Assembly: GCA_039922375.1 (NCBI GenBank)
Contig: JBDSAA010000211.1
Location: 25,305 to 89,304 of the forward strand
Direction: 5' to 3'
Origin: Ferruginibacter sp.
GTDB lineage: Bacteria; Bacteroidota; Bacteroidia; Chitinophagales; Chitinophagaceae
DNA length: 64,000 bases
In this document: positions 48,873 through 64,000 of the stretch, one piece after another
Layout: every line of letters starts with the position of its first letter
Position numbering within the stretch: position 1 is the first letter of the stretch
Program-made: the position numbers and the translations under genes
The notes under the pieces: generated by a model
The model's database searches: none
Told to the model about the DNA's origin: nothing
Seen by the model: the letters and a program-made list of their open reading frames with translations, nothing else

Positions 48873-48919
48873 TAAAAAAAAGAACTTCCACAGCTATTGG
48901 ATTGATAGCGTGTGGAAGT
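48873..48919 (-). terminator. Intrinsic terminator of unit A
   Basis: Minus strand reads ACTTCCACACGCTAT caatcca ATAGCTGTGGAAGT tc TTTTTTTT. Confidence 0.8.
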
Positions 48920-49026
48920 ACAATCTAAAACCGTTTTACGGATTTTATGGGATCATCAAAATCTTTGAGGGGTTACCTCCCAGAAAAAACTACCAAATAA
49001 TTTATTCCTGGTTTCAGTGTGTCCGG

Positions 49027-49310
49027 TCTTTTCGATGTCTCACGACATAGCTTTAGGATATTGGATGCGTTTGGTTTTTGGGTCATCATCGCTTTTTACG
49101 GCATAGTCCCGTGATTGGATTTTTTAGTTTTCTGTAGGTTTAGGATTCAGGTTTTTGAGTCATCATCGCTTTTAACAGCATAGTCTCCGGATATTGTTTT
49201 TTAGTCTTCAGTAGGATTTAAGATCTTGGTTTCGAGTCATTATCACTTTTTACAGCATAGTCTCAGAATATTCAATTTAGCAGGTCTTTTTTAGGATTTA
49301 ATTTCTAAAG
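49027..49310 (-). repeat. Tandem repeat array of unit A (4 copies; starts near 49033, 49080, 49157 and 49234; period 77 nt for the full copies)
   Basis: Plus-strand core g(a/g)gtcatcatcgctttttac(a/g)gcatagtc recurs. The copy nearest the terminator and the copy nearest the promoter are degenerate. Confidence 0.85.
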
Positions 49311-49344
49311 AAATTGTCTGTTGTTATTCATTCAACTTCTGATA

Positions 49345-49380
49345 CAAAGATGCGATGGTTTGGAATCGCAAACAATAGCA
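49345..49380 (-). promoter_or_regulatory. Promoter of unit A (-33 TTG within TGCTATTGTT, 20-nt spacer, -7 box CAtcTTTG)
   Basis: Minus strand reads tgctaTTGtttgcgattccaaaccatcgCAtcTTTGtatcag. Units B and C have the same geometry and the same 10-mer. Confidence 0.6.
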
Positions 49381-49872
49381 TAAGCGCTTTGTTTTTCATC
49401 GGATAGCCAATGCTGCCCGTGTAGTGATAATTCTATACATTCAACTATGTCGGGCTATTTTACTTGTTTCCAGTCTTTATTGTAATGGTTATTTGGGAGA
49501 ACATTCCGGCGATACATTGCCCGGGATATTTCGTTTGATTAGGCAAAGCCAGGCTTAGAGGATAAATATCAGGAAATGCGATGTAGTAACTATACTTTGC
49601 AAAGGATAAAACCGTCAGTTTCGATTTGCTTTAACCTCAGTGGAAAAATTCTGTTTAGTATATCAACCTTGTTACCTTGTTTAACATTCGTAATAAGGTA
49701 ATAAGGTCCATCGCTCGTCTGATTTGTTTCTTTATACAAATCACTATTTTTTCCCTCGCGAAGTACAATTAAAATGGAGTTTTTGTTGTTCAGCATTTTT
49801 GTTATCAAAAACCGGATTGGCACAAGAGTTCATTGTGATAATATTTCCTGATTGAGTATGGAGGCGGCTACC

Positions 49873-49919
49873 TAAAAAAAAACTCCCACAGCTATTGGTT
49901 TTTCATAGCGTGTGGAAGT
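49873..49919 (-). terminator. Intrinsic terminator of unit B
   Basis: Minus strand reads ACTTCCACACGCTAT gaaaaacca ATAGCTGTGGGAGT followed by nine T. Confidence 0.8.
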
Positions 49920-50031
49920 CAGTCTAAAACCATTTTACCGGTTTTATGGGATCTTTTTAATTCTTTGAGGGGTTGCCTCCCAGAAAAAATTACCAAATAA
50001 TTTATTCCTGGTTTCAGTGTTTTAGGTCTTT

Positions 50032-50400
50032 TACCATCATCGCCTTGCGGCATAGGCTTAGGATATTGGATTCGTTCGGTTTTTTGGGTCATCATCGCTT
50101 TTTACAGCATAGCCCCGGTTGTTGGATTTTTTAGTTTTCTTTCGGTTTGGACTTGGTTTTTTTGAGTCATCATCGCTTTTTACAGCATAGTCCCGGTTGT
50201 TGGATTTTTTGGTTTTCTTTCGGTTTGGACTTTGGTTTTTTGAGTCATCATCGCTTTTTACGGCATAGTCTCAGGATGTTTAATTTAACTGGTCTTCTTT
50301 AGGATTTTTGATTCTTGGTTTTTTTGAGTCATCATCGCTTTTTATAGCATAGTCTCAGGATGTTGTTTTTTTGGTCTTTTTTAGGATTTAGGTTCTAAGA
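50032..50400 (-). repeat. Tandem repeat array of unit B (5 copies; starts near 50032, 50086, 50164, 50242 and 50326; periods 54, 78, 78 and 84 nt)
   Basis: The copies at 50086 and 50164 are nearly identical over 78 nt. All copies share the core gagtcatcatcgctttttacagcatagtc. Confidence 0.9.
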
Positions 50401-50430
50401 AGTGTCAGTATTACTCTTTCACTTCTGACA

Positions 50431-50466
50431 CAAAGATGCGTTGGTATTTGTTGGTAAACAATAGCA
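50431..50466 (-). promoter_or_regulatory. Promoter of unit B (-33 TTG within TGCTATTGTT, 20-nt spacer, -7 box CAtcTTTG)
   Basis: Minus strand reads tgctaTTGtttaccaacaaataccaacgCAtcTTTGtgtcag. Confidence 0.6.
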
Positions 50467-50721
50467 TTATCGCCCTTTTTTGCTCGTAGAGTAATTACTG
50501 CCGACGTAGTAACACTTCTATACATGCCGATGTAATACTACGTTCATGAGACAGGGATAATACGAGGATGGGTTAACATTATAGGAATATGAGTTGGCTG
50601 CGGCCGGCATTACTGTACTGACTCCCAATGAACTAACGCAGTAAAAGCAATATGGATAAAATTAAAGGCCAGTCCCTGGTGAATAATAAACGCCGGAAAA
50701 AAACGTACAGCATACAATGCA

Positions 50722-50763
50722 GAAAAAAAATTCCACGGCTTATAATTTATAGCCTGTGGAAGT
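50722..50763 (-). terminator. Intrinsic terminator of the 1203-aa histidine kinase gene
   Basis: Minus strand reads ACTTCCACAGGCTAT aaatta TAAGCCGTGGAA followed by eight T. The stem sequence matches the family seen in the unit A, B and C terminators. Confidence 0.8.
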
Positions 50764-50806
50764 AAATTTATTATTACAGGTTAAAAAAACTATTGTGAAA
50801 ATATTA

Positions 50807-53800
50807 TTAATAGTAATGCATCATCTTATCGCTTCCGTCGCTTACAGGGATTGTAAAGTGGAAAACACTTCCTTCCAATGGCACTGACTCTACCCATATT
50901 TTACCATGATGCAATTCTACTATTTTTTTGCAATGAGATAAACCTATGCCTGAGCCATGGTATTCTGTACGGGTATGCAGCCGCTGAAAAATAACAAATA
51001 TCCTTTCGCTGTGAACCTTGTCGATGCCAATGCCGTTATCCGCAAATGCAAAATTCCAATAGCCATCACTTTTATCCACCGTTATTTTTATTACCGGTGC
51101 TACACCAGGTTTGCTGAACTTTATAGCATTGATAAGCAGGTTTTGAAACAACTGCTTTATTTCCGTTGGATAACCACTGATGGTGGGTAATTCCTCCGAG
51201 ATAACTTCTGCTCCTGAATCGCCTATCGCTTTATAAAGATCTGCAAGAACATGTTGCAGAACCAGGTTACAATCTATGCTCTCCAGCTCTTTCATTGTCC
51301 CTATCCTTGAATAATCAAGCAAATCTTTTATAAGTGTTTTCATCCTGTCAGAAGAATCAATTATAAATTCGAGGTACTTATCAGCTTTTTCATCCAGCCT
51401 GCCCCGGTACTGCTGCTGAAGCAGTTTCACAAAGCTGGATGTAGTACGGAGCGGTTCCTGCAAATCGTGTGAAGCCACGTAAGCAAACTGCTCCAGTTCC
51501 ATATTTTTTCTTTTCAATTCCTTATTTTTTGACTCAAGCCTTGCTTCAGACTTTTGTAGAAGCGCCTCATCCAGCTTCCGCTTGGTGATGTCTGTGATCA
51601 TCGCGAGACCACCAATAAAATGATCTTCTTTATTTAAGATAGGTGAAGCCGATACACTCGTCCAGATAAGTTTGCCGCTTTTAGTTTTAAAAGGCAGGTC
51701 TATACTTTCTGATAACCCTGCCCTTCTTTTTTGCAAAGCAGGTATTATTATTTTCCTGTCGGCTTCTTCCATAAAATAAGTGATGTGTTTACCAACCATC
51801 TCTTCTGCAGAATACTCAAGTATCGCACACATATTTTCATTCACAAAGAGGCTAAAGTCGTTCTCATCTGTCACCCAAATACCCTCCTGAGCAGTTTCCA
51901 CTATCTGGCGGTAACGTTCTTCGCTAATTTTTAACCTGGCTTCCGCTTCTTTTCTTTCGCTGATATCTACGATCATTCCATCACATATCTCTTCCCCTGT
52001 TATCGGGTCTTCAAATAAAGAAATATTTTCTATCACATGCAATGGCTTGCCCTTCCCTGTCTTCAACACCACTTCCAAATTGTAGAGCTTTTTTTGTTCC
52101 CGTAGCGCTGATATTAAATTCCTTCTTTCGGTAGTTGTAAAATAAAACGCTGCGGCATTGGTTTGCAATACCTCCTGTGGAGACGCATAGCCAAGAATAT
52201 CCGCAAATGCCTGGTTACAAGTAATTATTTTACCCGCAATATTTGTTTGAAAAATTCCGGCAAGGTTGTGTTCGAATAAAGTGCGGTACCGACGCTCGCT
52301 TTCTGCCACATGCAGTTCTGTTTTTTTCCGTTCGGTAATGTCCACGATGGCGCCAATAACCCGAACAGGTTTTCCGAAATCATCCCGTATTACATAGGCT
52401 CTGTCCAATACAGTTCCATACACACCTTCTCTTATTTCATATCTAAATTCATTTTCCCAAAAGTTGACTGTATTTTTTCTTATTTTTCTAAGCCTTCCAA
52501 TAACAGTGTCCCTGTCATCCGGGTGTACTTTTTTAGTCCATTCATATAAATCCGGCACCGGCATATTTTTATCATAACCAAGCAGCTTAAAAAAGCCTTC
52601 ATTCCACCACACATCTTCAGTTAAAAGATTCCAATCCCAAATTGCGTCGTTGGTGGCTTGTGACAGCCTTTGAAATCTTTCTACAGATTCCCGGATATTT
52701 TTTTCGGCATTCCTTCTTTCAGTGATATCCCTAACGATGGTAATAACACGGCCATCAGAAAGCCTTTTCACTGTAATATCCACAGGGATGAGTGTTCCTT
52801 TTTTATTTAAAATATTTTTTTCAAAAGCTATCTTTTCACCTCTTAATAATTTTTGCTTACTGGCTTGGGTGGCCATTTCTGCTCCTAAAATAATTTCAGT
52901 AATATTAATTTGTCCGATTTCTTCCTTTGTATACCCCAGCAAATCACATCCACTTTGGTTGACATCTGTTAATTTACCATCGGGTGTATTTATAAAGATG
53001 GCATCCGATGCCTGCTCTACCAACGAGCGGTGTTTTTCTTCTCCTTCATTAATTAACTGTTCCGATTTCTTACGGGCAGTAATGTCCACCATTATACCTC
53101 TTAGAAATTGTGTGCCGTCCTCGTTTAAAATCACTGATACAATATCCTGCAACCATACAATACTACTGTCTGCCGCTATCATCCTGTATTCAAATTCATG
53201 CGATTTTCTTTCGCTGGTGTACTGCATGCAAATGGATACCGCTGTTTCCCTGTCATCCGGATGTATGTGGTTGGGCCAGAAAAGGGGCGACTCGATCCAT
53301 TCCGAAACAGGGTATCCAAGCAATGCCTCCGCACGTTTACTTACAAAACTAAATTGAAAGGTTGCCGCATTTGCTTCCCACACAATGCCATTAACAGTAT
53401 TTACAAGGTTTTGAAAATTTTGCTCAGATTTCTTTACCTGCTCTTCTACTATTTTCCTGTCGGTAATATCGTGCACAGACCCAATGATCATAATGCAATT
53501 GTTTTTTTCATCCAATACAGGATCGATCGTTACAATGCCCGTTTTAATACCGGTAGGATACGCTGTGGTTTCCTCCCAGTTCACTGTTTTTTTTTCTGTA
53601 GCTGCTTCTGTGTATTTTTCCAATGCAAGTTCCAGTGACGGAGATGGGATTACTTCTTCTATATATTTTCCCTCAACCTGTTTCCTGGATAAACCAGTAG
53701 TAGTTAAAAAAGAACTGTTTACTGAAACAAACTTAAACCGGCTGCTACTTTCTACGCTCAACATGAAAATGCTATCCACCACCGTGTTATAAATAAGGTC

Positions 53801-54418
53801 GAGCTGCCGTTCATTCAATAACAATGCAGCCTCCGATTTTTTTCTTTCTGTTATATCATTCACGATACCTTCTACTCTTATAAGCTTTCCCTCTGCAAGA
53901 GTTGGCACTGCTTTTACCTCTATCCATCTTATGGACAAATCTTTATGAATGATGCGGTAGGAATTTTTAATTGTTATTCCCAGGCATAACGGTCCATTTT
54001 CATTTTCAATTAAATGGCGGTCATCCGGATGAATTACCTGGTACCATAGTATATTGTTGTCATAGAAATCCTCAACGGTATAGCCGTAAATTTTTTCACA
54101 GCCAATAGACACTTGAATATACTTATTAGCGATAATATCCCTGGAAAAAAAGCCTTCGTTTACTTCGTTAAATATGTGGCTAAGTTTATCATGTTCTTTT
54201 TTATGCTCCTCGATTTCCTTCAATAATGTCTCATCCAATTCACCCAATTTAATTGTGCAGTCTTCCACAGAAGTTTGCAGCAATTGTATTTTATCATCAT
54301 ACCTATCAAATGTTTTGTTGATGGAAGCTATAAAACTTACGAAGGATTCAGGCAGTTCCGTTGCATCGCCCAAATATTTTTGTACCTGCTGTTGTAATAA
54401 TTTATTAAGCATAATCAA
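50807..54418 (-). CDS. Multi-PAS sensor histidine kinase (cytoplasmic, about 7 PAS/PAC modules, HisKA + HATPase_c)
   Basis: Repeated PAS-PAC modules ending in DITERK/DITKRK, H-box FAYVASHDLQEPLR, N-box QNLLINAIKF, G-boxes DNGIGI and GSGIGL. Confidence 0.9.
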   Translation of the reverse strand: MIMLNKLLQQQVQKYLGDATELPESFVSFIASINKTFDRYDDKIQLLQTSVEDCTIKLGELDETLLKEIEEHKKEHDKLSHIFNEVNEGFFSRDIIANKYIQVSIGCEKIYGYTVEDFYDNNILWYQVIHPDDRHLIENENGPLCLGITIKNSYRIIHKDLSIRWIEVKAVPTLAEGKLIRVEGIVNDITERKKSEAALLLNERQLDLIYNTVVDSIFMLSVESSSRFKFVSVNSSFLTTTGLSRKQVEGKYIEEVIPSPSLELALEKYTEAATEKKTVNWEETTAYPTGIKTGIVTIDPVLDEKNNCIMIIGSVHDITDRKIVEEQVKKSEQNFQNLVNTVNGIVWEANAATFQFSFVSKRAEALLGYPVSEWIESPLFWPNHIHPDDRETAVSICMQYTSERKSHEFEYRMIAADSSIVWLQDIVSVILNEDGTQFLRGIMVDITARKKSEQLINEGEEKHRSLVEQASDAIFINTPDGKLTDVNQSGCDLLGYTKEEIGQINITEIILGAEMATQASKQKLLRGEKIAFEKNILNKKGTLIPVDITVKRLSDGRVITIVRDITERRNAEKNIRESVERFQRLSQATNDAIWDWNLLTEDVWWNEGFFKLLGYDKNMPVPDLYEWTKKVHPDDRDTVIGRLRKIRKNTVNFWENEFRYEIREGVYGTVLDRAYVIRDDFGKPVRVIGAIVDITERKKTELHVAESERRYRTLFEHNLAGIFQTNIAGKIITCNQAFADILGYASPQEVLQTNAAAFYFTTTERRNLISALREQKKLYNLEVVLKTGKGKPLHVIENISLFEDPITGEEICDGMIVDISERKEAEARLKISEERYRQIVETAQEGIWVTDENDFSLFVNENMCAILEYSAEEMVGKHITYFMEEADRKIIIPALQKRRAGLSESIDLPFKTKSGKLIWTSVSASPILNKEDHFIGGLAMITDITKRKLDEALLQKSEARLESKNKELKRKNMELEQFAYVASHDLQEPLRTTSSFVKLLQQQYRGRLDEKADKYLEFIIDSSDRMKTLIKDLLDYSRIGTMKELESIDCNLVLQHVLADLYKAIGDSGAEVISEELPTISGYPTEIKQLFQNLLINAIKFSKPGVAPVIKITVDKSDGYWNFAFADNGIGIDKVHSERIFVIFQRLHTRTEYHGSGIGLSHCKKIVELHHGKIWVESVPLEGSVFHFTIPVSDGSDKMMHYY

Positions 54419-54512
54419 TCTTAGTCAACCTTTAGTTCAATGTTAATGACCTGTTGCATCTTTAAAAACATTCAAACTCATTTTTCAAAATATCTTATAA
54501 ATAAATTTTTAA

Positions 54513-54830
54513 TCAAATGCTCGTTAATGGTTTGTTCTCGAAGCCTGCAACCATTGGAATATTATCAGCATGTAGTTTATCATCAGGGTTAAAAGATGAG
54601 CTGAACATAATAGGCATATTGATATCCAGGGATATTAGCTCGGGATACTGCAAGTCCCGCATTTTATCATCAAGCTCTGCTGTGTCTATCAGATATTTCA
54701 ATGCCTTTTTACCACTGTCTTCTATTTGAATATGATGTGTGCATCCGGCTTCCTCCAATAGCATATTGTTGATAAAATTATTTGATTCATCATCATCAAT
54801 AAGCAGGATACAGTTTAATTTTTTTTTCAT
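54513..54830 (-). pseudogene. Degenerate stand-alone receiver. It has an internal deletion of about 27 aa and a premature stop relative to its two paralogs.
   Basis: MKKKLNCILLIDDDE...LDINMPIM then FSSSFNPDD...GFENKPLTSI*. The alpha3-beta4 segment present in the 142- and 156-aa paralogs is missing. The tail homologous to KLEAILEKY is interrupted by in-frame stops. Confidence 0.5.
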
Positions 54831-55260
54831 AATATTAATTTACCGTTCTCACAAATTTTTGAATTGCCAATCCACCTGTTCGCAGCCGATATTGTATAAC
54901 AGGTATCTCCTTTCCCTGGGAAACTGCAATGGCTTATCACCAGGCTCTGAAAAAGTAATTTTGATCTCTGTGGGGAGCGATTTAGAATGGGCAGCTTTGT
55001 ATCTTGACAGGCTGCATATGCCATTTTTGGGTTAAAAATTAAAAGAACTTATGCCTGGCCTCTCACTGATTCATTAGATGGAATCTGGTTGGTGGTTCAA
55101 TTATTACTTCGAGGCAAGTACGGAGCCATATGCAAATTCGCTATAAAAAGCGGAATAACGCAATCCCAACAGCATTATTTTCAACTGTTGCAAAGCCAGC
55201 AACCTAACTGTTTGACCCTCTTGATATGTCAGCGCAAAAGGGAAGTAAACAGCTGCTTTA
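54827..55260 (-). pseudogene. Remnant of a histidine kinase core (H-box to N-box region only)
   Basis: ORF 54827..55024 reads ...KLPILNRSPQRSKLLFQSLVISHCSFPGKG, matching ELPVIDGYPTEIKLLFQNLVINAIKFRKK of the intact kinases. DNA at 54937-54976 aligns with 59807-59846. An H-box remnant EFAYGSVLASK is followed by two stops near 55101-55139. The G-boxes are absent. Confidence 0.6.
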
Positions 55261-55309
55261 TAAACCGGACCATATCAGTTTCTATAAGCTATACATCAAC
55301 AGCCATTAC

Positions 55310-55738
55310 TTAAACAAATACAGATAATAAATATTTTTCTAAGATTGCTTCTAACTTTTTTGCTGTTAAAGGTTTATGCTCAAAACCTGAGATCTGCGGG
55401 AGGTTTGCTGCCTTCAATTCATCTTCAGGAAACAATGAAGTGGTGAGCATTACTACGATGGTTTTATCAGTGGTGTTTATTGCTTTATATTCCTCTAAAA
55501 ACTCCCATCCATTCATAGCCGGCATATTTATGTCAAGAAAGATAAGATTGGGCACAGGATAGTGACCACTATTATCTTTTTCCACCTCGCTCTTTGTTAA
55601 GTACTCCAATGCTTCAGCACCGCTTTCGGCAATTTTAATATGCTCCGTGCAACCTGATTCTTCAAGCATCATTCGGGTAAAAAAGTTGGTCGCCTCGTCA
55701 TCATCAATTACAAGTATGCAGTTCAATTTGTGTTTCAT
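55310..55738 (-). CDS. Stand-alone CheY-like receiver (no output domain)
   Basis: DDD acidic pocket, phospho-acceptor in FLDINMP, MLTTS, KPLT. Confidence 0.9.
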   Translation of the reverse strand: MKHKLNCILVIDDDEATNFFTRMMLEESGCTEHIKIAESGAEALEYLTKSEVEKDNSGHYPVPNLIFLDINMPAMNGWEFLEEYKAINTTDKTIVVMLTTSLFPEDELKAANLPQISGFEHKPLTAKKLEAILEKYLLSVFV

Positions 55739-58154
55739 GGGTTGGATTTTTTTGAATGGTAAAATAAAAAATACTTCCTGTGCCCGGTATAGATTCTACC
55801 CGGATATTTCCTTTATGTAATTCAACAATTTTTTTACAATATGATAAACCGATGCCTGAGCCCGGATAATGTGAACGGTTATTAAGGCGTTGAAAAATAA
55901 CAAAAATTCTTTCACTATGTTTTTTCTCCAACCCTATCCCATTGTCACTAATAGTAAATTCCCAAAAGTCTTCTTTTTCAATTGCAGCAATATTTATTTG
56001 CAGCGGCACATCGTTTTTGCGGAATTTTATTGCATTCGCCAGCAGGTTATGAAAGAGTTGTTTTATCTCGGCGTCATATCCCCGGATAACAGGCAATTCC
56101 CCTACAGTAATGTGGGCACCACTTGTGTGAATAACTACATTGAGGTCATTCAGCACTTCCCGTAAGAGGCACTGTGTGTTTACCAGTTGCAGTTCCTTGT
56201 TTGCCCCAATCCTGGAGTATTCCAGTAATCCCGTTATAAGGGTTCTCATTCTTTCTGACGATTGCATAATAAAGGAAAGGTATTGATCTGCCTTATTATC
56301 GAGCCTGCCAAGGTATTGCTTTTGAAGTAAGCCTACAAAGTTGCCGGTAGTTATCAATGGTTCCTGCAGGTCGTGTGAGGCTACATATGCAAACTGCTGA
56401 AGTTCTTTATTTTTTCTTTCAAGTTCCATATTATTAGCAATTAGCCTGGCTTGGGATTTTCGTATTAATAACTCATCCTGTTTACGCTTAGTAATATCGG
56501 TAAACATTGCCATTGCCCCCTTATAATTTCCGGCTTCATCCAAAACAGGGTTGGTAGATACATTTGTCCATAGAGTTTTACCGCTTTTTGTAACGAAAGA
56601 CGATTCGTGGGTTTCATGCAACCCGCCCTTTCTCCTTTTAATTTGATCCATCGCCTTTTTCTTTTCATCATCATTCTTGAAATCATAATTTTGTTTCCCC
56701 ATCATCTCTTCCCTTGAATATTCAAGCATCTCACACATTTTTTTATTTACAAAAACCGTGTAATTGTTTTCATCAATTACCCAAATGCCCTCCTGTGATG
56801 TTTCTACTATTTGCCTGTATTGTTTTTCACTTTTTAGCAATTCCGCTTCAGCCTTTTTCTGCTCGGTAATGTCCTGGGCTATTCCCGTTAGTCTGATTAG
56901 TTCGCCTTTGTCATTTTTTGTCGGCTTGCCGTGAGCGCTTATTATCTTGGTAATATTTTTACTGCTAATTATCCGGCATTCATAAGAAAACGGCAAATGA
57001 TCCATAACAGATTTGGACATAAGGCTGCGCACGTTTTCTCTATCATCCGGATGTACAAAACTCAGGAACCCTTCATAGCTCGCATTAAACAAATTGCGGT
57101 CTGTATCAAAAACATCATACAATTCATCAGACCACAATAGCCCGTTGTTGACGATATCCCACTCCCAGCTTCCCAGTTTAGCAATGTGTTGAGCTTCGTT
57201 TAAATTTTCATTACTGGCTTTCAAATTATCACGCATTGCTACCAGGGCTTTGCCTAAAGCATCTTCTGCACCTAGTGGTTCAAAATAACTTTCAAAGTTC
57301 CTGTTTCCTATTTCAGTGGCAAATGCGGCAGTAGCTTGCAATTTTTCAGAAAGGTTATTAACAGAACGTATCATCTCGCTGATCTCGTCATTCTTAATAT
57401 CATGCGTTACCTTCCTGGAAATTCCATTACCCAGGTCAGTTACAATATGCCTTATTTTATTGATAGGCTGAATAATTAACCTGGTCATAAATAAGGAAAG
57501 GAATACGCCGATTAAGATCATTGTTACTGACAAAGCAATTATAAACATTCGTAGTTTCGTCGAGTACACACTCACTATATTGTTCTGTACTGTTCTTTCA
57601 GCTATCCAATGGGTTCTGATAGCTTTTATAGAATTAATCAGGCTTGCAGAGCGTGGAAGAACTTCTTCCTCAATCTTTCTTTCTGCTTCAAACTTTATCA
57701 TTGGGTCATCATAATCACTGAACGTTTTTAAATCATTCATTATGCCCTTTTCTATTACCAGTAATTCTTCAAAACCGGCAAATGCTTTGTTTAAACTATC
57801 TACCCAGTTGTTCGCCTTCCATTGAGCTGCATACTTGCTAATTGCTGATTTTAATGCAGGATAATCAGTGACGCGTAATTTTTCTAAAGCCGTTTTGTTC
57901 TCTTCACTAAACCTTAAAAAAACCCAGTTAGTGGTATATATTTTCGACTCAAGCGCCATTCTTCTGAAATCGATAATTGTTTCTAATGAAGGCTCTATCA
58001 CCTTAGTAAGATGGTTAGACGAATGTTGGATATTGTTTAAAGTAATGATTGTCATAATGCTATTTATAATAAATAACACAACTAACAATAAGAAGCTACC
58101 GTAAATTCTGTGCCTGATGCTTATGTTCACGCCGCGTTTAAAATAATTAAGCAT
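55704..58154 (-). CDS. Membrane sensor histidine kinase (2 TM + HAMP-like linker + 2 PAS + HisKA + HATPase_c)
   Basis: N-terminal TM helix, extracytoplasmic region of about 170 aa, second TM helix, PAS modules, H-box FAYVASHDLQEPL, N/G boxes. The 3' end overlaps the receiver gene by 35 nt. Confidence 0.9.
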   Translation of the reverse strand: MLNYFKRGVNISIRHRIYGSFLLLVVLFIINSIMTIITLNNIQHSSNHLTKVIEPSLETIIDFRRMALESKIYTTNWVFLRFSEENKTALEKLRVTDYPALKSAISKYAAQWKANNWVDSLNKAFAGFEELLVIEKGIMNDLKTFSDYDDPMIKFEAERKIEEEVLPRSASLINSIKAIRTHWIAERTVQNNIVSVYSTKLRMFIIALSVTMILIGVFLSLFMTRLIIQPINKIRHIVTDLGNGISRKVTHDIKNDEISEMIRSVNNLSEKLQATAAFATEIGNRNFESYFEPLGAEDALGKALVAMRDNLKASNENLNEAQHIAKLGSWEWDIVNNGLLWSDELYDVFDTDRNLFNASYEGFLSFVHPDDRENVRSLMSKSVMDHLPFSYECRIISSKNITKIISAHGKPTKNDKGELIRLTGIAQDITEQKKAEAELLKSEKQYRQIVETSQEGIWVIDENNYTVFVNKKMCEMLEYSREEMMGKQNYDFKNDDEKKKAMDQIKRRKGGLHETHESSFVTKSGKTLWTNVSTNPVLDEAGNYKGAMAMFTDITKRKQDELLIRKSQARLIANNMELERKNKELQQFAYVASHDLQEPLITTGNFVGLLQKQYLGRLDNKADQYLSFIMQSSERMRTLITGLLEYSRIGANKELQLVNTQCLLREVLNDLNVVIHTSGAHITVGELPVIRGYDAEIKQLFHNLLANAIKFRKNDVPLQINIAAIEKEDFWEFTISDNGIGLEKKHSERIFVIFQRLNNRSHYPGSGIGLSYCKKIVELHKGNIRVESIPGTGSIFYFTIQKNPTHETQIELHTCN

Positions 58155-58165
58155 TTGTGATTTTT

Positions 58166-58375
58166 TTAAAATTCATAATTGAAACATGCAAACCGCATAG
58201 CTGGCTTTTCGTCAGTGTGAAAAAATCCTTTTGCTCTGTTATTCAATATATTTTCCCAATACAAATGTTTAAACGGTTCAACAGTTAGATTATTATTAAG
58301 AGCCAGTTCGCAACTGTCTTTTTGATAGTAATCAATGCCGTCCCCTTCCGAGCGTTGTAAGCCAAATGGGTTCAT
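58166..58375 (-). CDS. Small hypothetical ORF ending in an outer-membrane-protein-like C-terminus (possible gene remnant)
   Basis: About 69 aa from the ATG, ending ...RFACFNYEF. It sits between the YfiR-like gene and the kinase. Support is weak. Confidence 0.25.
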   Translation of the reverse strand: MNPFGLQRSEGDGIDYYQKDSCELALNNNLTVEPFKHLYWENILNNRAKGFFHTDEKPAMRFACFNYEF

Positions 58376-58410
58376 AAACAATTGAATTTTTTTACTTTAA
58401 AATCCGGTAG

Positions 58411-58998
58411 CTATCTTACCAGTGTACCTAGCCGCAAAAGCTCCGAAGCAACATTTAAATCCCTGCTTTCAATATTTGTTTTATTTATTTCCAGTTTCAG
58501 GCGTTCATCTGCAACTACAAAATTTATACACGATCCTTTTGACGCAGCGGCATTGATCTCGGAAACAATTAAAACCGGACTTCCTTTTGTTATGTTAACA
58601 ATCTTCTGTAAGCTTTTACCAGCATCATCACCAATAAATAAAATATGACAGTTATATTTTTTTGCCGAAGCGCTCATTTTCCGGACACTTATCTTCCTGT
58701 TTCCTATAGCCTTACTCTTTACAAATTCATCCAATTCTTCATAAAGCGGTGTATTGCCAATTATGCCAATGATAAAATCGCCGGTATTATAAACAGCGGG
58801 CCATTCAATGTACTTAGTAAACCTATAAATGATATTCGCATGTACTGCATAACTTAAGTCTTGCTGCGCCTTTCCGGAAACTGACAAGCACATCATTACC
58901 ATAAACGCAAAGCCTACTTTGTGATAGAACATTAAAACAAAATAAGTCTTCCTGTTTTTTAAATACATCCTTATATATTTTCCTGATGTGGCTAACAC
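58411..58998 (-). CDS. YfiR-like (DUF4154) periplasmic protein
   Basis: Signal peptide, then VHANIIYRFTKYIEWP ... ILFIG ... VLIVSE ... GSCINFVVADERLKLEIN pattern of DUF4154. The start may be the internal ATG at 58968. Confidence 0.75.
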   Translation of the reverse strand: MLATSGKYIRMYLKNRKTYFVLMFYHKVGFAFMVMMCLSVSGKAQQDLSYAVHANIIYRFTKYIEWPAVYNTGDFIIGIIGNTPLYEELDEFVKSKAIGNRKISVRKMSASAKKYNCHILFIGDDAGKSLQKIVNITKGSPVLIVSEINAAASKGSCINFVVADERLKLEINKTNIESRDLNVASELLRLGTLVR

Positions 58999-59034
58999 AA
59001 TTTATTGCCCGTGGCTTATGTACTTTTTTTATTT

Positions 59035-59505
59035 CTAATTACTTTTATCCCCCACGAATGCCAGTTTACCAGTACTGTCATCCCTCGAGAAATGCTTTTG
59101 CAATATTCTTTCCAGCTTCCCAATTGTTATTGGCTTATTCTCAAAGCCCGAAATTTCAGGCATGCTTTCAGCCCTTTCCCTATCTTCCGGAAAAAGAGAA
59201 GTAGTTAACATAACTGTCATCACTTTGCCCTGTATTTCCTTGTCAAGCTTTTTATATTCTTCTAAAAATTCCCAGCCATCCATCGCAGGCATATTGATGT
59301 CAAGCAATATTAGGTCAGGGCAGGGGTAATAATTTTCGTCACACCCATTTTTATGACTGGTCAACAGGTATGCCAGTGCCTCTTTGCCGCTTTCCACCAT
59401 TTTTATATATTGTGCGCACCCGGCTTCTTCCAATATGATCCGGGTAAAAAAGTTAGTAGCCTCGTCATCGTCAATTACAAGTATGCAATTCAATTTATAT
59501 TTCAT
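59035..59505 (-). CDS. Stand-alone CheY-like receiver (no output domain)
   Basis: Paralog of 55310..55738 (MKYKLNCILVIDDDEATNFFTR..., LLDINMP, MLTTS, KPIT). Confidence 0.9.
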   Translation of the reverse strand: MKYKLNCILVIDDDEATNFFTRIILEEAGCAQYIKMVESGKEALAYLLTSHKNGCDENYYPCPDLILLDINMPAMDGWEFLEEYKKLDKEIQGKVMTVMLTTSLFPEDRERAESMPEISGFENKPITIGKLERILQKHFSRDDSTGKLAFVGDKSN

Positions 59506-62500
59506 CAGTTATTATTTTTATGAATGGTAAAATGAAATATGCACCCTTCTCCTGGTGCAGATTCTACCCAAATTTTTCCTTTATGTAGTTCTACTATTTT
59601 TTTACAATGCGACAAACCGATACCGGAACCTGCATACTCCTTATTGGTATGCAGCCGTTGAAAAATGTCAAATATTCGCTGGCTGTATTTTTCGTCTATA
59701 CCAATACCATTGTCGCTTATAGTGAATTCCCAATAATGCGCTGCTTGTTGCACATCAATTTTTATTCCTGGTATAACGTCCTTCTTACGGAATTTTATTG
59801 CATTGATCACAAGGTTCTGAAAAAGTAATTTGATTTCTGTTGGGTAACCATCTATCACCGGTAACTCAGCAACTTGTATATCAGCGTTCGCTTCTTTTAT
59901 TGCTGCCATAATATCGGCGAGCATTTCCTGCACCAGTATATTGCAGTCAATTTTTTTCAATTCCATATTTGTTCCAATCCTCGAATAATCCAGCAGGTCT
60001 TTAATTACTACTTTCATCCTTGTGGTGGCTTCTAAAATAAACGCCATATATTTATCCGCTTTCTCATCGATCTTTCCATGATATTGCAGTTGCAGCAATT
60101 CCACAATGCCTGCTGTAGTTCTCAACGGTTCCTGCAGATCGTGTGAAGCTACATAGGCAAACTGCTCCAGTTCTTTATTTTTTATTTTAAGTTCTTTATT
60201 AGCAAGTTCAGCTTCAATCCTCGCATGGTCGGCTTCAAGCCTTGCCTTCTGTTCTTCCTGGGTTGAAAGAGATAATTGCAGTGTTTGTTCCTGCACTTTT
60301 TCTTGTAGTTTTCTTCTTTGTGCTTTAATCGCATTTACCCTGTACCCGTAAAATGCCACCATACCACTGATAATTGCAATGACCATCAACAGCCTGAACC
60401 ACCAGGTTAACCAAAAAGGTGGTTCAATGATGAGTTGAATGCTGATGATATTCTTCGACCAGTTGCCTTCATTATTTAATCCCCTAACCTTGAAAATGTA
60501 TTTACCCGGATCAATATTAGTATAAGTCGCTATACGGCTGGTTCCGGCTTCATGCCACTCTTTATCAAAACCTTCCAGGATATAAGCATATTTCTTTTTC
60601 TCGGGTGTTGTATAATTAAGTGTGGCAAATTCAAAAGAGAAAAAAGTGTTAGAATAAGGCAGCGTAATGGTTTTAACTTCCGCTATATTTTTTCTTAAGG
60701 GAGACGAGTCGGAATGATTGATGGGAACAAGTACTTTCTTATTGAAAGCATTGAATTTTGTAATAACCAGCGGAGGCTCAAAAGCAACGGCTTTAACACT
60801 GTCTGGAAAAAATTGGTTAAAGCCATTAGTGCCGCCAAAATACATTACCCCGGATCTGCTTTTGCAGAACGCATGCATTTTAAATTCATTTGACTGCAAG
60901 CCATCGGATACGCTAAAGTTTTTAAAGACTTTTGTTATAGGATTAAAACGGGAAATGCCTTTGTTGGTACTGATCCACAGATTTTTTTTACTGTCTTCCA
61001 GTATTCCGAAAATCACATTATCAGGAAGGCCGTCTGCCATGGTATAAACTGTAAACCGCCCAGTTTTTTTGTTAAAAAAGTTTAGGCCCACCCTCGTTCC
61101 AATCCATAAATTTTTATCCCCGTCTTCAAAAATTGAACTTAAGCTGTTATTACTAATGCTGTTCTTTGTTTCATCATGTAAAAAACGTGAAAAGGATTTT
61201 GTTTTTTTATCATATAGATTTAAACCGTCGCCGTCGGTGCACACCCATAATTGACCATCGCTATCTTCAAAAATAGAAACAACATAAATGCCTGAAATAC
61301 CATTAGTCCGATTAATAGCATATTGGTGATGCGTGAAGGATTTTTGATCAGCATTTAACAGGTCCAGGCCACCACCAAAAGTGCATACCCAGATATTTTT
61401 ATCCCGGTCTTCAAAGATTTTCCAAACATTATTACTATTTAAGCTCGATGGGTTGCCAGGTTCATTTTTGAAATGCCTGAAGGTTTTGCTAGTTGGGTTA
61501 AATACCGTCATTCCATCTCCCCAGGTTCCGGCCCAGATGTTGCCTTTACTGTCTTCGTGTACAGCCAATACATAATCGCCGCAGATGCTTTTTTTGTTAT
61601 TTTTCTCATGGCGAAAATGGGTAAAGTTGCCTGTTGTGGGGTTAAACACATTCAAGCCGCCCCCATCTGTTCCCAGCCAGATATTTTGTTTAGAGTCCTC
61701 AAAGATGCTGAGCACCTGGTTATTGCTGAGGCTGTTGGGTGACAGCATATGCTTATAATGTGCAAACCTGGCTTTATCCCGGTTTGCCATGTCAATACCA
61801 CCGGTAAAGGTGCCCAGCCACATATTGCTTTTAAGATCCTTATAAACAGAATAAATAGAATTACTGCTGATGCTTTCTCCGTCAATTTCGTCGTGCTTGT
61901 AAGTGGTAAATGAGCCGGCATCATAATTAAAAATAGATAACCCTCCGTTTTCAGTGCCAATCCACAGATTATTCTCAGCATCTTCCGTAATGGCATACAC
62001 AGTATTTGCCGCCACGCTATTTGCATTATTTTCATCGTGTTTAAAATGAGTAAATGCCCCGGTTTCCATGTTAAATAAATCCATTCCTGCACCATCAGTT
62101 CCTACCCATAAACGACGCTTACTATCTTCAAACATGGTGTACACATTATTGCTGCCTATGGAATGTCTGTTCTTTTTATCATGCTGAAAACGAGTAAAGT
62201 TTTTGTTTTTCCTGTTTAGCAAATTGATTCCTCCATTCAGCGTGGCCATCCAGATATTATGGCTCATGTCTTCGAAAATATACCTTATATAAGAATCGCT
62301 GATACTCTTATTGTCGGCCAGGTTATGCGTAAAATGTTCCATTTTATTTGTTACCGGGTCCAGCATATCCAATCCTGCTTCTGTACCAATCCAGATTTTT
62401 CCGTACTCATCCTCAAGTAAGCCATGTACCACATCGTGAGAAATGCTGTTTGCATTTTTCGGGTCATGCGTGTAGTTAGTAAAACTTTCTTTGTTTCGAT

Positions 62501-62831
62501 CGTAGCGGGATACGCCCCCACCAACTGTCGCTATCCACAATTCCCCCGTGTTACTTTCTATAACCTTCATTATGAAATTACTGCCGATACTGTTTTTATT
62601 ATGCGGATCATTTTTATAAAAGGTAAAAGAATAGCCATCATATTTATTCAACCCATCCCTGGTACCGAACCACATAAAGCCACTTTTGTCTTGCATTATA
62701 GAAAGCACGTTGCTATGAGAAAGCCCCTGGTCAAAACCTATATGATCAAAATGTACATGATGGTTTTGCGGATATACAAAAGCACAGCAAGCCAAAAAAA
62801 ATAAGCTGAGTAATACTCGCAAGTTGTTCAT
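59505..62831 (-). CDS. Sensor histidine kinase with a periplasmic two-component-regulator beta-propeller and Y_Y_Y domain
   Basis: Signal peptide, more than 12 repeats of the IWxGTxxGGL propeller motif, Y_Y_Y-like region (YAYILEGFDKEW), one TM helix, coiled coil, H-box FAYVASHDLQEPLR, N/G boxes. Confidence 0.9.
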   Translation of the reverse strand: MNNLRVLLSLFFLACCAFVYPQNHHVHFDHIGFDQGLSHSNVLSIMQDKSGFMWFGTRDGLNKYDGYSFTFYKNDPHNKNSIGSNFIMKVIESNTGELWIATVGGGVSRYDRNKESFTNYTHDPKNANSISHDVVHGLLEDEYGKIWIGTEAGLDMLDPVTNKMEHFTHNLADNKSISDSYIRYIFEDMSHNIWMATLNGGINLLNRKNKNFTRFQHDKKNRHSIGSNNVYTMFEDSKRRLWVGTDGAGMDLFNMETGAFTHFKHDENNANSVAANTVYAITEDAENNLWIGTENGGLSIFNYDAGSFTTYKHDEIDGESISSNSIYSVYKDLKSNMWLGTFTGGIDMANRDKARFAHYKHMLSPNSLSNNQVLSIFEDSKQNIWLGTDGGGLNVFNPTTGNFTHFRHEKNNKKSICGDYVLAVHEDSKGNIWAGTWGDGMTVFNPTSKTFRHFKNEPGNPSSLNSNNVWKIFEDRDKNIWVCTFGGGLDLLNADQKSFTHHQYAINRTNGISGIYVVSIFEDSDGQLWVCTDGDGLNLYDKKTKSFSRFLHDETKNSISNNSLSSIFEDGDKNLWIGTRVGLNFFNKKTGRFTVYTMADGLPDNVIFGILEDSKKNLWISTNKGISRFNPITKVFKNFSVSDGLQSNEFKMHAFCKSRSGVMYFGGTNGFNQFFPDSVKAVAFEPPLVITKFNAFNKKVLVPINHSDSSPLRKNIAEVKTITLPYSNTFFSFEFATLNYTTPEKKKYAYILEGFDKEWHEAGTSRIATYTNIDPGKYIFKVRGLNNEGNWSKNIISIQLIIEPPFWLTWWFRLLMVIAIISGMVAFYGYRVNAIKAQRRKLQEKVQEQTLQLSLSTQEEQKARLEADHARIEAELANKELKIKNKELEQFAYVASHDLQEPLRTTAGIVELLQLQYHGKIDEKADKYMAFILEATTRMKVVIKDLLDYSRIGTNMELKKIDCNILVQEMLADIMAAIKEANADIQVAELPVIDGYPTEIKLLFQNLVINAIKFRKKDVIPGIKIDVQQAAHYWEFTISDNGIGIDEKYSQRIFDIFQRLHTNKEYAGSGIGLSHCKKIVELHKGKIWVESAPGEGCIFHFTIHKNNN

Positions 62832-63349
62832 CTAATTGCTCTTTTTCGGATAGAAGGATGAGGTCACCTTTTTTTTCTTGTGTCGTTAGCTACTATAATG
62901 TTTCTTTCTATTACTCTTGTCATAAAATCATCGCCAATTCTTCAGTACTTCATTGCTGGCGGTGCAAATACCCGGGTAAATAATAATTAAATTCTGGCAG
63001 CAACTTAACGTGGCTGATAGACCCATTAGAAATTTTCCGTAAACAAAAAACCCCCGTCAGGAGGCCGTAAAGGTTGTTGCAAACTTAATTTTCGAAAAAT
63101 ATTCGCTTCAGAACGGCTTCATAATAACTTTCTTAAACAATCAATTTAAATACTGCGGCGGGGGCAATCGTTTAATTTCAAGGCTATATTATGAAGTAAA
63201 GGTTCATAAAACTTAAATTATAAAAGGTAGAAAAACAAACCATTGTGATGTAGCTATATGTCTATTACCAGGGATTAGATATAAAGATGCCATAGAAAAC
63301 AGATAGCATTTCGTAAAATACTGCATGGCCAATTGTAGATTAGGAAAAA

Positions 63350-63393
63350 TAAAAAACTTCCACAACTAATGGTTTTTCATAGTCTGTGGAAGT
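63350..63393 (-). terminator. Intrinsic terminator of unit C
   Basis: Minus strand reads ACTTCCACAGACTAT gaaaaacca TTAGTTGTGGAAGT TTTTTATTTTT. Confidence 0.75.
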
Positions 63394-63495
63394 ATAATTT
63401 TGCGAACGTTTTAATAAGTTCACGTAGATCAGGGTGTGTTAGCCATTGTCCCAGAGCAATTTAATAATTTTCTGGTTTGGGTTGCATTTGGTTTT

Positions 63496-63700
63496 GGCCA
63501 TCATCGCTTATTACGGCATAGGCCAGGATATTGGTATTGGTTTTTGGGTCATCATCGCTTCTTACGGCATAGGCCCGGATACTGGTTTTTTGTCTTCTTT
63601 AGTTTTTGGATTGAACTGGTTTTTGGCCATCATCGCTTTTTAAAGCATAAGCCGGATATTGTCTTCCTGGTTTTAATTTGGATACTGGATTTCTATTTTT
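63496..63700 (-). repeat. Tandem repeat array of unit C (3 copies; starts 63496, 63546 and 63625; periods 50 and 79 nt)
   Basis: Plus-strand core gg(c/g)(c/t)catcatcgct(t/a)(a/c/t)tta(c/a)(g/a)gcata(g/a)gcc recurs three times. Confidence 0.85.
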
Positions 63701-63730
63701 ACCGAAGATATCATTCGGTGAATGCTGATG

Positions 63731-63766
63731 CAAATATCAGGCAGTAACAGTTGCTCAACAATAGCA
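63731..63766 (-). promoter_or_regulatory. Promoter of unit C (-33 TTG within TGCTATTGTT, 20-nt spacer, -7 box GAtaTTTG)
   Basis: Minus strand reads tgctaTTGttgagcaactgttactgcctGAtaTTTGcatcag. Confidence 0.55.
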
Positions 63767-64000
63767 ATATTGCTCTTTTTCTTAAACAGAATAAGTACTA
63801 AAATATTAGTATTAATGCTACATTGTTATATGAATTAATACGTGCCTTCTCAAACGTATTATTACGATTATTTATCAATTCATCATCGCTGGACACACCC
63901 AGCTTGTTAAAATAATATTAACACTAGTTTAGTTCTTTCAATTTTTACTTTTTATGAAACCCTCTACAGCTATGGCTGTTAGCGATATTAACTCTCCGAT

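Follow-up and report, generated by a model that had tools for sequence, protein, structure and literature searches.

Post-transcriptional control is poorly understood in Bacteroidota. As far as we know, the classical hubs CsrA, Hfq and ProQ have been reported absent from the phylum, and only the RRM-type protein RbpB and the FopS small RNAs (sRNAs) have been characterised, in gut Bacteroides. RNAs of the CsrB/CsrC and RsmX/Y/Z type are stand-alone, terminated sRNAs of a few hundred nucleotides (nt), made of a variable number of hairpin motifs joined by unstructured linkers; they are encoded by several paralogous genes per genome. In Bacteroides thetaiotaomicron the RRM protein RbpB binds a multicopy family of sRNAs, FopS/GibS (PMC11697453). 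The DNA analysed here, hereafter the window, is a stretch of 64,000 nt from Ferruginibacter sp. (contig JBDSAA010000211.1) hosting three repeat blocks, called units A, B and C. All the traits listed for CsrB/CsrC and RsmX/Y/Z recur in these units and their relatives, whose genes in one sublineage are also close to sensor kinases. Unit C is best explained as an intact gene, predicted to be independently transcribed into a non-coding RNA of about 375 nt, which may act in trans as a protein decoy; to the decoy mechanism we assign a probability of roughly 0.45. The unit belongs to an undescribed multi-copy RNA family, very probably made of real sRNA genes kept by selection.

Unit C and its counterparts in the window

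Unit C extends from 63766 to 63345 on the minus strand, and is made of a Bacteroidota-type promoter, three 31-nt hairpins and a strong terminator. An earlier note on this DNA had described the same architecture, and all the elements were found in place. The layout is that of units A and B, located 13 kb away, and the order of the parts is identical. The parts of unit C are:

63791-63798, minus strand: upstream promoter element GTACTTAT, a weak match to the family GTAATTAC palindrome near -68 (consensus of 90 unique promoters)
63761-63776, minus strand: palindrome AGAGCAATATTGCTAT, family consensus AGAGC-N6-GCTCT centred at about -42; it overlaps the -33 element, its 3' half corresponding to TGCTATTGTT
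63757-63766, minus strand: -33 region TGCTATTGTT, identical 10-mer in unit A (49380-49371) and unit B (50466-50457)
63731-63738, minus strand: -7 box GATATTTG of the Bacteroidota TAnnTTTG type, 18 nt past the -33 10-mer
63701-63730, minus strand: short 5' leader CAUCAGCAUUCACCGAAUGAUAUCUUCGGU, in which two small hairpins overlap (CAUUC/GAAUG and ACCGAA/UUCGGU), the short form of the family 5' helix
63680-63687, minus strand: orphan linker motif CAGUAUCC in the leader, with no hairpin after it
63625-63661, minus strand: module C1, CAAUAUCC and then hairpin GGCU-UAU-GC-UUUAAAAA-GC-GAUGAU-GGCC (63653-63625; outer stem GGCU/GGCC; 58.6 bits with the covariance model described below)
63546-63584, minus strand: module C2, CAGUAUCC and then hairpin GGGCC-UAU-GC-CGUAAGAA-GC-GAUGAU-GACCC (63576-63546; outer stem GGGCC/GACCC; 61.6 bits)
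63495-63533, minus strand: module C3, CAAUAUCC and then hairpin UGGCC-UAU-GC-CGUAAUAA-GC-GAUGAU-GGCCA (63525-63495; outer stem UGGCC/GGCCA; 58.9 bits)
63451-63475, minus strand: 3'-domain hairpin CCAGA-(AU-rich loop)-UCUGG, counterpart of the family (CUGAAA)CCAGGA...UCCUGG
63402-63434, minus strand: CCCUGAUC motif (family motif UGAUCCC/AUCCUGA) and penultimate hairpin GUGAAC...GUUCGC (63423-63402)
63345-63392, minus strand: intrinsic terminator CUUCCACAGACUAU-GAAAAACC-AUUAGUUGUGGAAG with U-run, i.e. CUUCCACAGACUAUGAAAAACCAUUAGUUGUGGAAG-U6; stem sequence kept across the family

Transcription would start near 63726. The promoter spacer measures 18 nt, not 20 nt as previously given; since units A and B have the same 18 nt, the argument drawn from a shared promoter geometry stands. 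The flanks GGCC/GGCC assigned to the hairpin stems are found in two of the three hairpins, and not in the remaining one. The 3' domain had been said to keep only the CCAGA...UCUGG hairpin, which is indeed present, but the (C)CUGAUC motif and the penultimate hairpin also fit the family layout. Unit C carries every family module, the CUGAAA motif and the GAGG...CCUC mini-hairpin of the 3' domain being degenerate, and combines core hairpins, palindrome promoter with 18-nt spacer, AAUAUCC-type linkers, 3' domain and terminator, the features by which the family is defined. The minimum free energy structure of C3 includes the outer stem (-10.4 kcal/mol), and the terminator folds at -15.5 kcal/mol (z = -4.8).

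The 23-nt core CTATGCNGTAANAAGCGATGATG has ten matches in the window (three mismatches at most), found in three blocks and all on the minus strand; none was found in 100 shuffles. A covariance model, R1, was built from the ten hairpins of the window. Hairpins C1-C3 score 58.6-61.6 bits, those of units A and B 58.5-67.5 bits, and the full-model scan of the window found nothing beyond the ten hairpins except a variant fifth copy in unit B. With degenerate and variant copies the hairpins amount to 12 (three plus one degenerate in A, four plus one variant in B, three in C), the same total given in the earlier note. The two paralogs are:

49872-50498, minus strand: unit B, with promoter, four canonical hairpins, one GCAA-capped variant, 3' domain and terminator
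48876-49400, minus strand: unit A, with promoter, three canonical hairpins, one degenerate GUGA-capped hairpin (A4), 3' domain and terminator

The palindrome of the family promoter is also found in unit B, at 50476-50461. The short-form 5' pairings are AGAAGUG/CACUUCU in B, AGAAGUUG/CAAUUUCU in A and CAUUC/GAAUG in C. The phosphoesterase gene that follows units A and B is convergent with them. The 5' end of unit B, UCAGAAGUGAAA, resembles loop C of 5S rRNA, which we take to be a coincidence; no 5S model matches at E <= 10, and the family consensus shares only 8 nt with it.

The gene next to unit C on the downstream side is co-oriented and encodes a histidine kinase of 1108 amino acids (aa) (Reg_prop, Y_Y_Y, HisKA, HATPase_c), starting at 62831. 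The end of unit C is about 515-520 nt from this start, in agreement with the distance of ~520 nt from a co-oriented propeller kinase reported earlier. Within this interval a terminator-like hairpin, GGCCUCCUGACGGGGG, followed by U6, is found at 63049-63066 (minus strand), and a GCATCTTTA box at 63290-63282 (minus strand). The hypothesis that the 510-nt spacer hosts a decayed fourth unit was rejected, as the spacer has no similarity to any sRNA unit. On the opposite strand an open reading frame (ORF) of 103 aa, antisense to unit C (63436-63747, plus strand), has a repetitive translation (GHHRFLRHRPGYW...) and no Pfam match; it arises as a side effect of the G/T-rich composition of that strand.

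The wider family

Species-representative genomes were scanned for two AAGCGATGATG words located 40-70 nt apart, and at least 119 stretches were retrieved, on which all locus counts given here rest. At a threshold of E <= 0.01 the R1 model matches at least 321 hairpins in at least 77 loci, from about 70 species genomes; a covariance-model search had been suggested in the earlier note, for which a lack both of further homologs and of expression would have spoken for a decaying repeat; homologs are plentiful. All the 77 listed loci (designated by L and a number) are labelled Ferruginibacter, Chitinophagaceae, Chitinophagales, Chitinophaga (a metagenome-assembled genome) or unclassified Bacteroidota/Bacteroidetes. 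The family is mostly hosted by Ferruginibacter and relatives, soil and freshwater Chitinophagaceae. The other ~40 listed stretches (Actinomycetota, Chloroflexota, archaea and others) have no R1 match, and were picked up by chance or through coding sequence. In an independent pass with nhmmer 308 of the hairpins were found again, organized in 105 arrays of 1-8 copies (mode 3). The spacing between copies has two modes (51-60 and 73-85 nt), and multiples of three are not over-represented. Two to four units are often found in tandem, and several genomes supply two loci. In each array all the copies lie on one strand, which is that of the promoter and of the terminator where these were found.

Unit C resembles units in other genomes more than its neighbours. 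Identity is 76.5% over 349 nt to L045, 74.9% over 354 nt to L017, 69.7% over 459 nt to L022 and 70.2% over 466 nt to L050, against 69.9% at best over 332 nt to unit B and local matches only to unit A. It is therefore an old paralog kept in several species, neither a recent nor a decaying duplicate. The number of loci (at least 77), compensatory changes in the stems and the closer relatives in other genomes all support the opinion, already expressed in the earlier note, that selection acts on a functional unit and that the block is not a duplication artefact.

Compensatory changes were analysed in 120 hairpins, one per outer-stem type. All five pairs of the outer helix change on both sides, and the compensatory cells are 136, against 56.5 +/- 6.5 in shuffles (none of 500 as high) and 42 at most in controls in which the 3' partner was slid by 1-3 columns. 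In the three innermost outer-stem pairs G-U combinations outnumber A-C ones by 30 to 5, an excess that would arise only if the RNA has the sequence of this strand, which fixes the strand. Among 280 unique copies, ascertained through the doubled AAGCGATGATG word, columns 11-33 (C-UAU-GC-YNUAAAAA-GC-GAUGAU-G) hardly vary. Conservation of sequence identity in the inner helix and loop, beyond pairing, is typical of hairpins recognised by proteins. In lower-scoring variants the A-rich octaloop is swapped for GAAA, GCAA, CCAACA, CCUAACCA or similar sequences, and the inner stem is extended by different pairs; GCC-UAU-GC...GC-GAUGAU-GGC is retained exactly. What stays invariant is therefore the asymmetric internal loop (UAU opposite GAUGAU), together with the flanking G-C pairs.

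A shared promoter, featuring a GCATCTTTG box, is located upstream of 93 of the 108 arrays, and both the palindrome and the GTAATTAC element are conserved there. The order is GTAATTAC (about -68), AAAAAGAGCAATAnnGCTCTTGT (AGAGC-N6-GCTCT, about -42, overlapping -33), ~18 nt and GCATCTTTG, followed by a conserved start, U/A-UCAGAAG (UCAGAAG). Searching directly for palindrome plus box gave 109 matches, and all the composite promoters in the 1.67 Mb examined stand before RNAs of this family, among them members with the same framework and other small hairpins. The palindrome AGAGC-N6-GCTCT is a candidate site, presumably for a dimeric transcription factor. Terminators of one type, CUUCCACA...UGUGGAAG-Un, are found within 330 nt after 66 of the 108 arrays, as well as after units A and B; many of the arrays without it are cut by contig ends.

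Each module is made of an A/C-rich, G-poor linker including AAUAUCC, followed by the hairpin, and 1-8 modules (mode 3) come after the 5' helix. The linkers, whose composition is 54% A, 26% C, 8% G and 12% U, are unstructured, and AAUAUCC lies just 5' of each hairpin. The linker motif CCAAUAUC (63526-63533 in unit C) is complementary at seven of eight positions to GAUGAUGG in the 3' half of the hairpin (63495-63505), throughout the family; the AAUAUCC-GAUGAUGG duplex is only modestly better than with shuffled flanks (-3.96 vs -2.61 kcal/mol), and no compensatory change in this pairing was found in G30A variants. In the relatives the 5' end, AGAAGUUGA..., pairs with a downstream UCAACUUCU and closes a domain of variable size. 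Some loci have long leaders (L113, e.g. minus strand 2245-2370, L069, L004, L024 and others), in which the 5' end AGAAGUUGAUUGAUA may pair either locally, with UAUCAAUCA, or, about 100 nt further downstream, with a distal UAUCAGUCAACUUCU that has a U-run after it. Each pairing precludes the other, so that the two may work as a switch or attenuator ahead of the hairpin array. The same promoter and 5' domain were noticed at L046 (2431-2900), L039 (4070), L024 (320), L087 (4888) and L115 (3116 and 6199), all on the plus strand. These members have other small hairpins in place of the UAU/GAUGAU hairpin, and the framework can thus carry different modules; in L046, read to its end, AAUAUCC linkers, 3' domain and terminator are all present.

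The family has no counterpart in the collections searched. Rfam gave no meaningful match (whole window at gathering thresholds, both regions at E <= 10), only chance matches of 13-22 bits, including the archaeal C/D RNA sR38, and no description was found in the literature, searched also with the motif sequence itself. Phage and plasmid collections gave no match by blastn. An origin from mobile elements or phages was rejected on this ground, the three matches in IMG/VR being single copies in a coding region and without the stem. A coding function was similarly rejected: the antisense 103-aa ORF has no Pfam domain, spacing has no period of three, and short frames initiated by AUGAUG are not conserved.

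ORFs of the 77 listed loci were clustered. A gene encoding a PALP+CBS protein (cystathionine-beta-synthase-like) is found upstream and co-oriented in 44 loci, and a Peripla_BP_2 (BtuF-like) gene, also co-oriented, at a median of 196 nt past the last hairpin in 37 loci; beyond the latter come genes for a class II fructose-bisphosphate aldolase and then AccD. This housekeeping site (cystathionine-synthase-like/BtuF-like), where no kinase is found, accounts for 57 of the 77 listed loci. Histidine kinases are encoded at seven of the remaining 20 (L011, L017, L022, L050, L055, L073, L102), with catalytic cores 56-65% identical to those of the three kinases of the window. An Rcp1-like single-domain receiver is also present at L011, L017 and L073 (46-55% identity to RR142 and RR156 of the window). 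The order regulator, kinase, sRNA units is shared by the window, L011 and L184; L073 has the regulator and then two units, with no kinase between; in unit C, L017 and L050 an sRNA unit precedes an operon with a kinase or a regulator. The reverse test was made on 80 metagenome loci encoding receiver homologues (45-68% identity, many with 10-kb flanks), and arrays were found at two, L181 and L184. The link to PAS or propeller kinases for which a check had been proposed holds for a sublineage including the relatives of unit C; as a family-wide property it was rejected (7/77 forward, 2/80 reverse). It is a conserved neighbourhood of that sublineage. Having no output domain, the receivers cannot themselves be the factor binding the palindrome.

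Three histidine kinases are encoded in the window at 50807-62831 (minus strand), with sensors made of 5-7 PAS domains, HAMP plus PAS, and a double propeller plus Y_Y_Y. Their catalytic regions all match the same kinases in other genomes, with identities of about 60-65%, which suggests one paralogous subfamily. The two downstream kinases are each paired with a receiver-only regulator of the same type, and a YfiR/HmsC-like gene is found between. A 105-aa ORF (54513-54830, minus strand) encodes a CheY-like receiver of the same subfamily as its neighbours at 55310-55738 and 59035-59505; as about 25 aa are deleted internally (NGWEFLE...MLTTS region), it is probably a pseudogene. The PAS kinase gene has a terminator, ACUUCCACAGGCUAUAAAUUAUAAGCCGUGGAA-U8, at ~50720-50765 (minus strand), whose stem CUUCCAC/GUGGAA is the same as in the sRNA terminators. 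Region 1-48000 of the window is ordinary chromosomal Bacteroidota DNA, encoding DnaB, PheT, RNase Y, PurA, RuvB, a CHU_C type IX secretion substrate, a TonB-dependent receptor, MbnP with a di-haem peroxidase, and two-component systems of the OmpR and LytTR types.

Proposed function and rival explanations

The RNA may act in trans as a multivalent decoy, each hairpin using its invariant internal loop to bind one copy of an RNA-binding protein. If the several paralogous sRNA genes were induced, the protein would be titrated off its other targets, as CsrB and RsmX/Y/Z do for CsrA/RsmA. The sRNA genes would form one regulon under a dimeric activator bound to AGAGC-N6-GCTCT at about -42, with the class II geometry of Crp/Fnr-type factors. 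In the sublineage including unit C the adjoining histidine kinases and Rcp1-like CheY receivers may feed into the control, the weakest link of the scheme. Decoy-like traits of the family are the 1-8 copies per unit, the tandem units, the several loci per genome and the unstructured linkers. A trans-acting decoy under transcription-factor control, titrating an RNA-binding protein, is the function tentatively proposed here, at the odds given at the outset. The broader idea of a Csr/Rsm-like sequestration circuit built by Chitinophagaceae from different parts (a new RNA-binding protein, a decoy regulon, one dimeric factor, possibly driven by kinases and CheY proteins) is conceivable and rather doubtful.

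Several points weigh against the decoy. Conservation figures are inflated, because loci were ascertained by the exact pattern of two AAGCGATGATG words; this affects the 3' half of the hairpin, and leaves out UAUGC, whose conservation is not inflated since it is absent from the search pattern. Single hairpins are thermodynamically weak (z from 0 to -2), a property compatible with stabilisation of the motif by a partner. The transcription start and the ends of the RNA are predictions from sequence. In the window and listed loci no gene for an RNA-binding protein is consistently adjacent, and no candidate binding protein was identified. Copies of the hairpin in mRNA leaders, which the decoy model predicts, were not found in the sRNA-centred DNA to which the search was confined. 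Finally, some family members keep the framework without the UAU/GAUGAU hairpin, so that the AAUAUCC linkers or another feature could be the functional element.

This last observation leads to the main rival, an sRNA with reiterated seeds, in which AAUAUCC linkers or A-rich octaloops would pair with mRNAs, and hairpins would stabilise the molecule or bind a chaperone. AAUAUCC precedes nearly every hairpin and persists in the members lacking the UAU/GAUGAU hairpin, and multicopy families of base-pairing sRNAs are known in the phylum, e.g. FopS/GibS in Bacteroides (PMC11697453). We regard base-pairing as unlikely, conservation being strongest in the internal loop and helix of the hairpin, where invariant nucleotides span both strands, and only 0.3-0.9 bits per position in the linkers. 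No target could be predicted, and A/C-rich seeds need G/U-rich targets, unusual for the A-rich initiation regions of Bacteroidota. Direct repeats fairly regularly spaced in one transcription unit, with an invariant core implying recognition of the repeat by sequence, would also suit a precursor cut at the hairpins by an endonuclease into unit-length small RNAs, as pre-crRNA or ToxI. Linkers differ from spacers, however, in being low-complexity, variable in length (51-85 nt) and provided with shared motifs, and the repeats differ from one another; neither cas genes nor toxin or nuclease genes are found beside units A, B and C or among the annotated recurrent neighbours of the relatives, and the gene after units A and B is convergent. 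Processing of this kind is improbable.

Control in cis has about the same small chance. Conditional read-through of the terminator would make the array a leader or attenuator for the next gene, the propeller kinase at unit C and the BtuF-like gene at the housekeeping site. Unit C is co-oriented with the kinase located 520 nt downstream, the arrays of L017 and L050 are upstream of co-oriented genes for a kinase or a regulator, the Peripla_BP_2 gene is co-oriented at the 37 loci mentioned, in L113 starting only ~50 nt past the terminator, and long leaders exhibit mutually exclusive 5' pairings followed by a U-run. In contrast, a co-oriented downstream gene is missing at units A and B, L005, L040 and L053, and downstream genes are mutually unrelated; the terminator is strong and conserved, a second terminator-like hairpin separates unit C from the kinase, and tandem units have each their own promoter. 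An invariant asymmetric internal loop between covarying helices is the signature of small aptamers too, and the array might bind a metabolite or an ion, or be an architectural scaffold. There is no expression platform, however, the number of repeats varies, no Rfam riboswitch matches, and we know of no case of 3-8 tandem aptamers on a terminated stand-alone RNA, so that aptamers appear a little less plausible still. Least probable is a decaying lineage-specific repeat devoid of function, the null hypothesis of the earlier note: degenerate copies exist, as A4 and the hairpin-less members, but about 70 species genomes carry the family, compensatory covariation is present, promoter and terminator are conserved, and 57 loci share a conserved syntenic position.

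Should a sequestration circuit of the Csr/Rsm-like kind outlined above exist, no protein-sponge sRNA system would have been found earlier in Bacteroidota, and it would give a handle on a new global post-transcriptional regulator in a phylum which, to our knowledge, lacks CsrA, Hfq and ProQ. The near-invariant reiterated hairpin may serve as bait for the missing RNA-binding regulator of environmental Chitinophagaceae, and the dedicated palindromic promoter element as bait for the transcription factor. The three puzzling repeat blocks of the window can be annotated as sRNA genes, and the family is a well-supported candidate, with covariation, for RNA databases, none of which has a model at present.

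Comparison with known systems

Several known classes were compared with the units and discarded. CRISPR arrays differ because here the stems of the repeats vary from copy to copy and the low-complexity "spacers" share AAUAUCC; no cas genes were found among the scanned ORFs of the window or the annotated recurrent flanking genes of the relatives. Repetitive extragenic palindromes and bacterial interspersed mosaic elements (REP/BIME) do not correspond to 11 copies in 64 kb, all within three promoter-to-terminator units and on one strand. A riboswitch or cis leader class was set aside, downstream genes being heterogeneous and often convergent, with no match to Rfam riboswitches. Type III antitoxin RNAs (ToxI, CptI, TenpI) are likewise tandem direct structured repeats, which bind a protein stoichiometrically; their repeats, however, are near-identical, contiguous (34-45 nt) and directly before the toxin gene. 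In our units the spacing is 51-85 nt, and the array of unit C is followed by a terminator, 520 nt and a histidine kinase; no toxin-like gene lies directly downstream of A, B or C.

The 3' strand of the hairpin, RUGAUG(A/G), resembles box C, and the predicted topology (a Watson-Crick stem, a 3-nt bulge GAU, non-canonical G.U, A.A and U.U pairs, then G-C) resembles that of box C/D kink-turns (k-turns). The k-turn was rejected all the same: the 5' strand is CUAU and not CUGA, with U14/A13 at the would-be 1n/2n positions in 279-280 of 280 copies, so that the would-be sheared G.A pairs are G.U and A.A, and the pairs defining k-turns are missing. Archaeal C/D models gave only 13-15 bits, with E above 2.

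CrcZ and CrcY, the Hfq/Crc sponges of Pseudomonas, are stand-alone sRNAs with reiterated A-rich motifs, and the linkers of the family are also A/C-rich and G-poor. Here, in contrast, the structured hairpin is most conserved, and there is no sequence similarity; Hfq is, as far as we know, not found in these bacteria.

The GacA box of the CsrB/Rsm circuits, TGTAAG-N6-CTTACA, is palindromic with half-sites 6 bp apart, as is the family promoter element, which overlaps the -33 element rather than lying far upstream. The hairpins differ from those of CsrB/Rsm, which expose GGA in the loop, in that the conserved part is the UAU/GAUGAU internal loop of a ~31-nt hairpin, and the two groups are not similar in sequence. 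Membership in the CsrB/RsmZ class was rejected, as no Rfam match was found even at E <= 10 and hairpin loops read YNUAAAAA. No CsrA domain was found among window ORFs of at least 150 aa; CsrA is only ~60 aa long, and no search was aimed at it.

The nearest described system in the phylum is FopS/GibS-RbpB, with which the multicopy logic is common and the architecture is not. Both systems feature many paralogous sRNA genes and sigma-A type TAnnTTTG promoters, and FopS is tied to a global RNA-binding protein (PMC11697453). FopS/GibS RNAs, in contrast, are short base-pairing sRNAs with one 5' seed, confined to Bacteroidaceae and devoid of hairpin arrays, and no sequence relation was detected, judging from Rfam and the published description (PMC11697453). 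Unit C is very probably one gene of a new sRNA family. The architecture is of a known kind, that of reiterated-motif decoy RNAs, but no such system is known with this motif or from this phylum.

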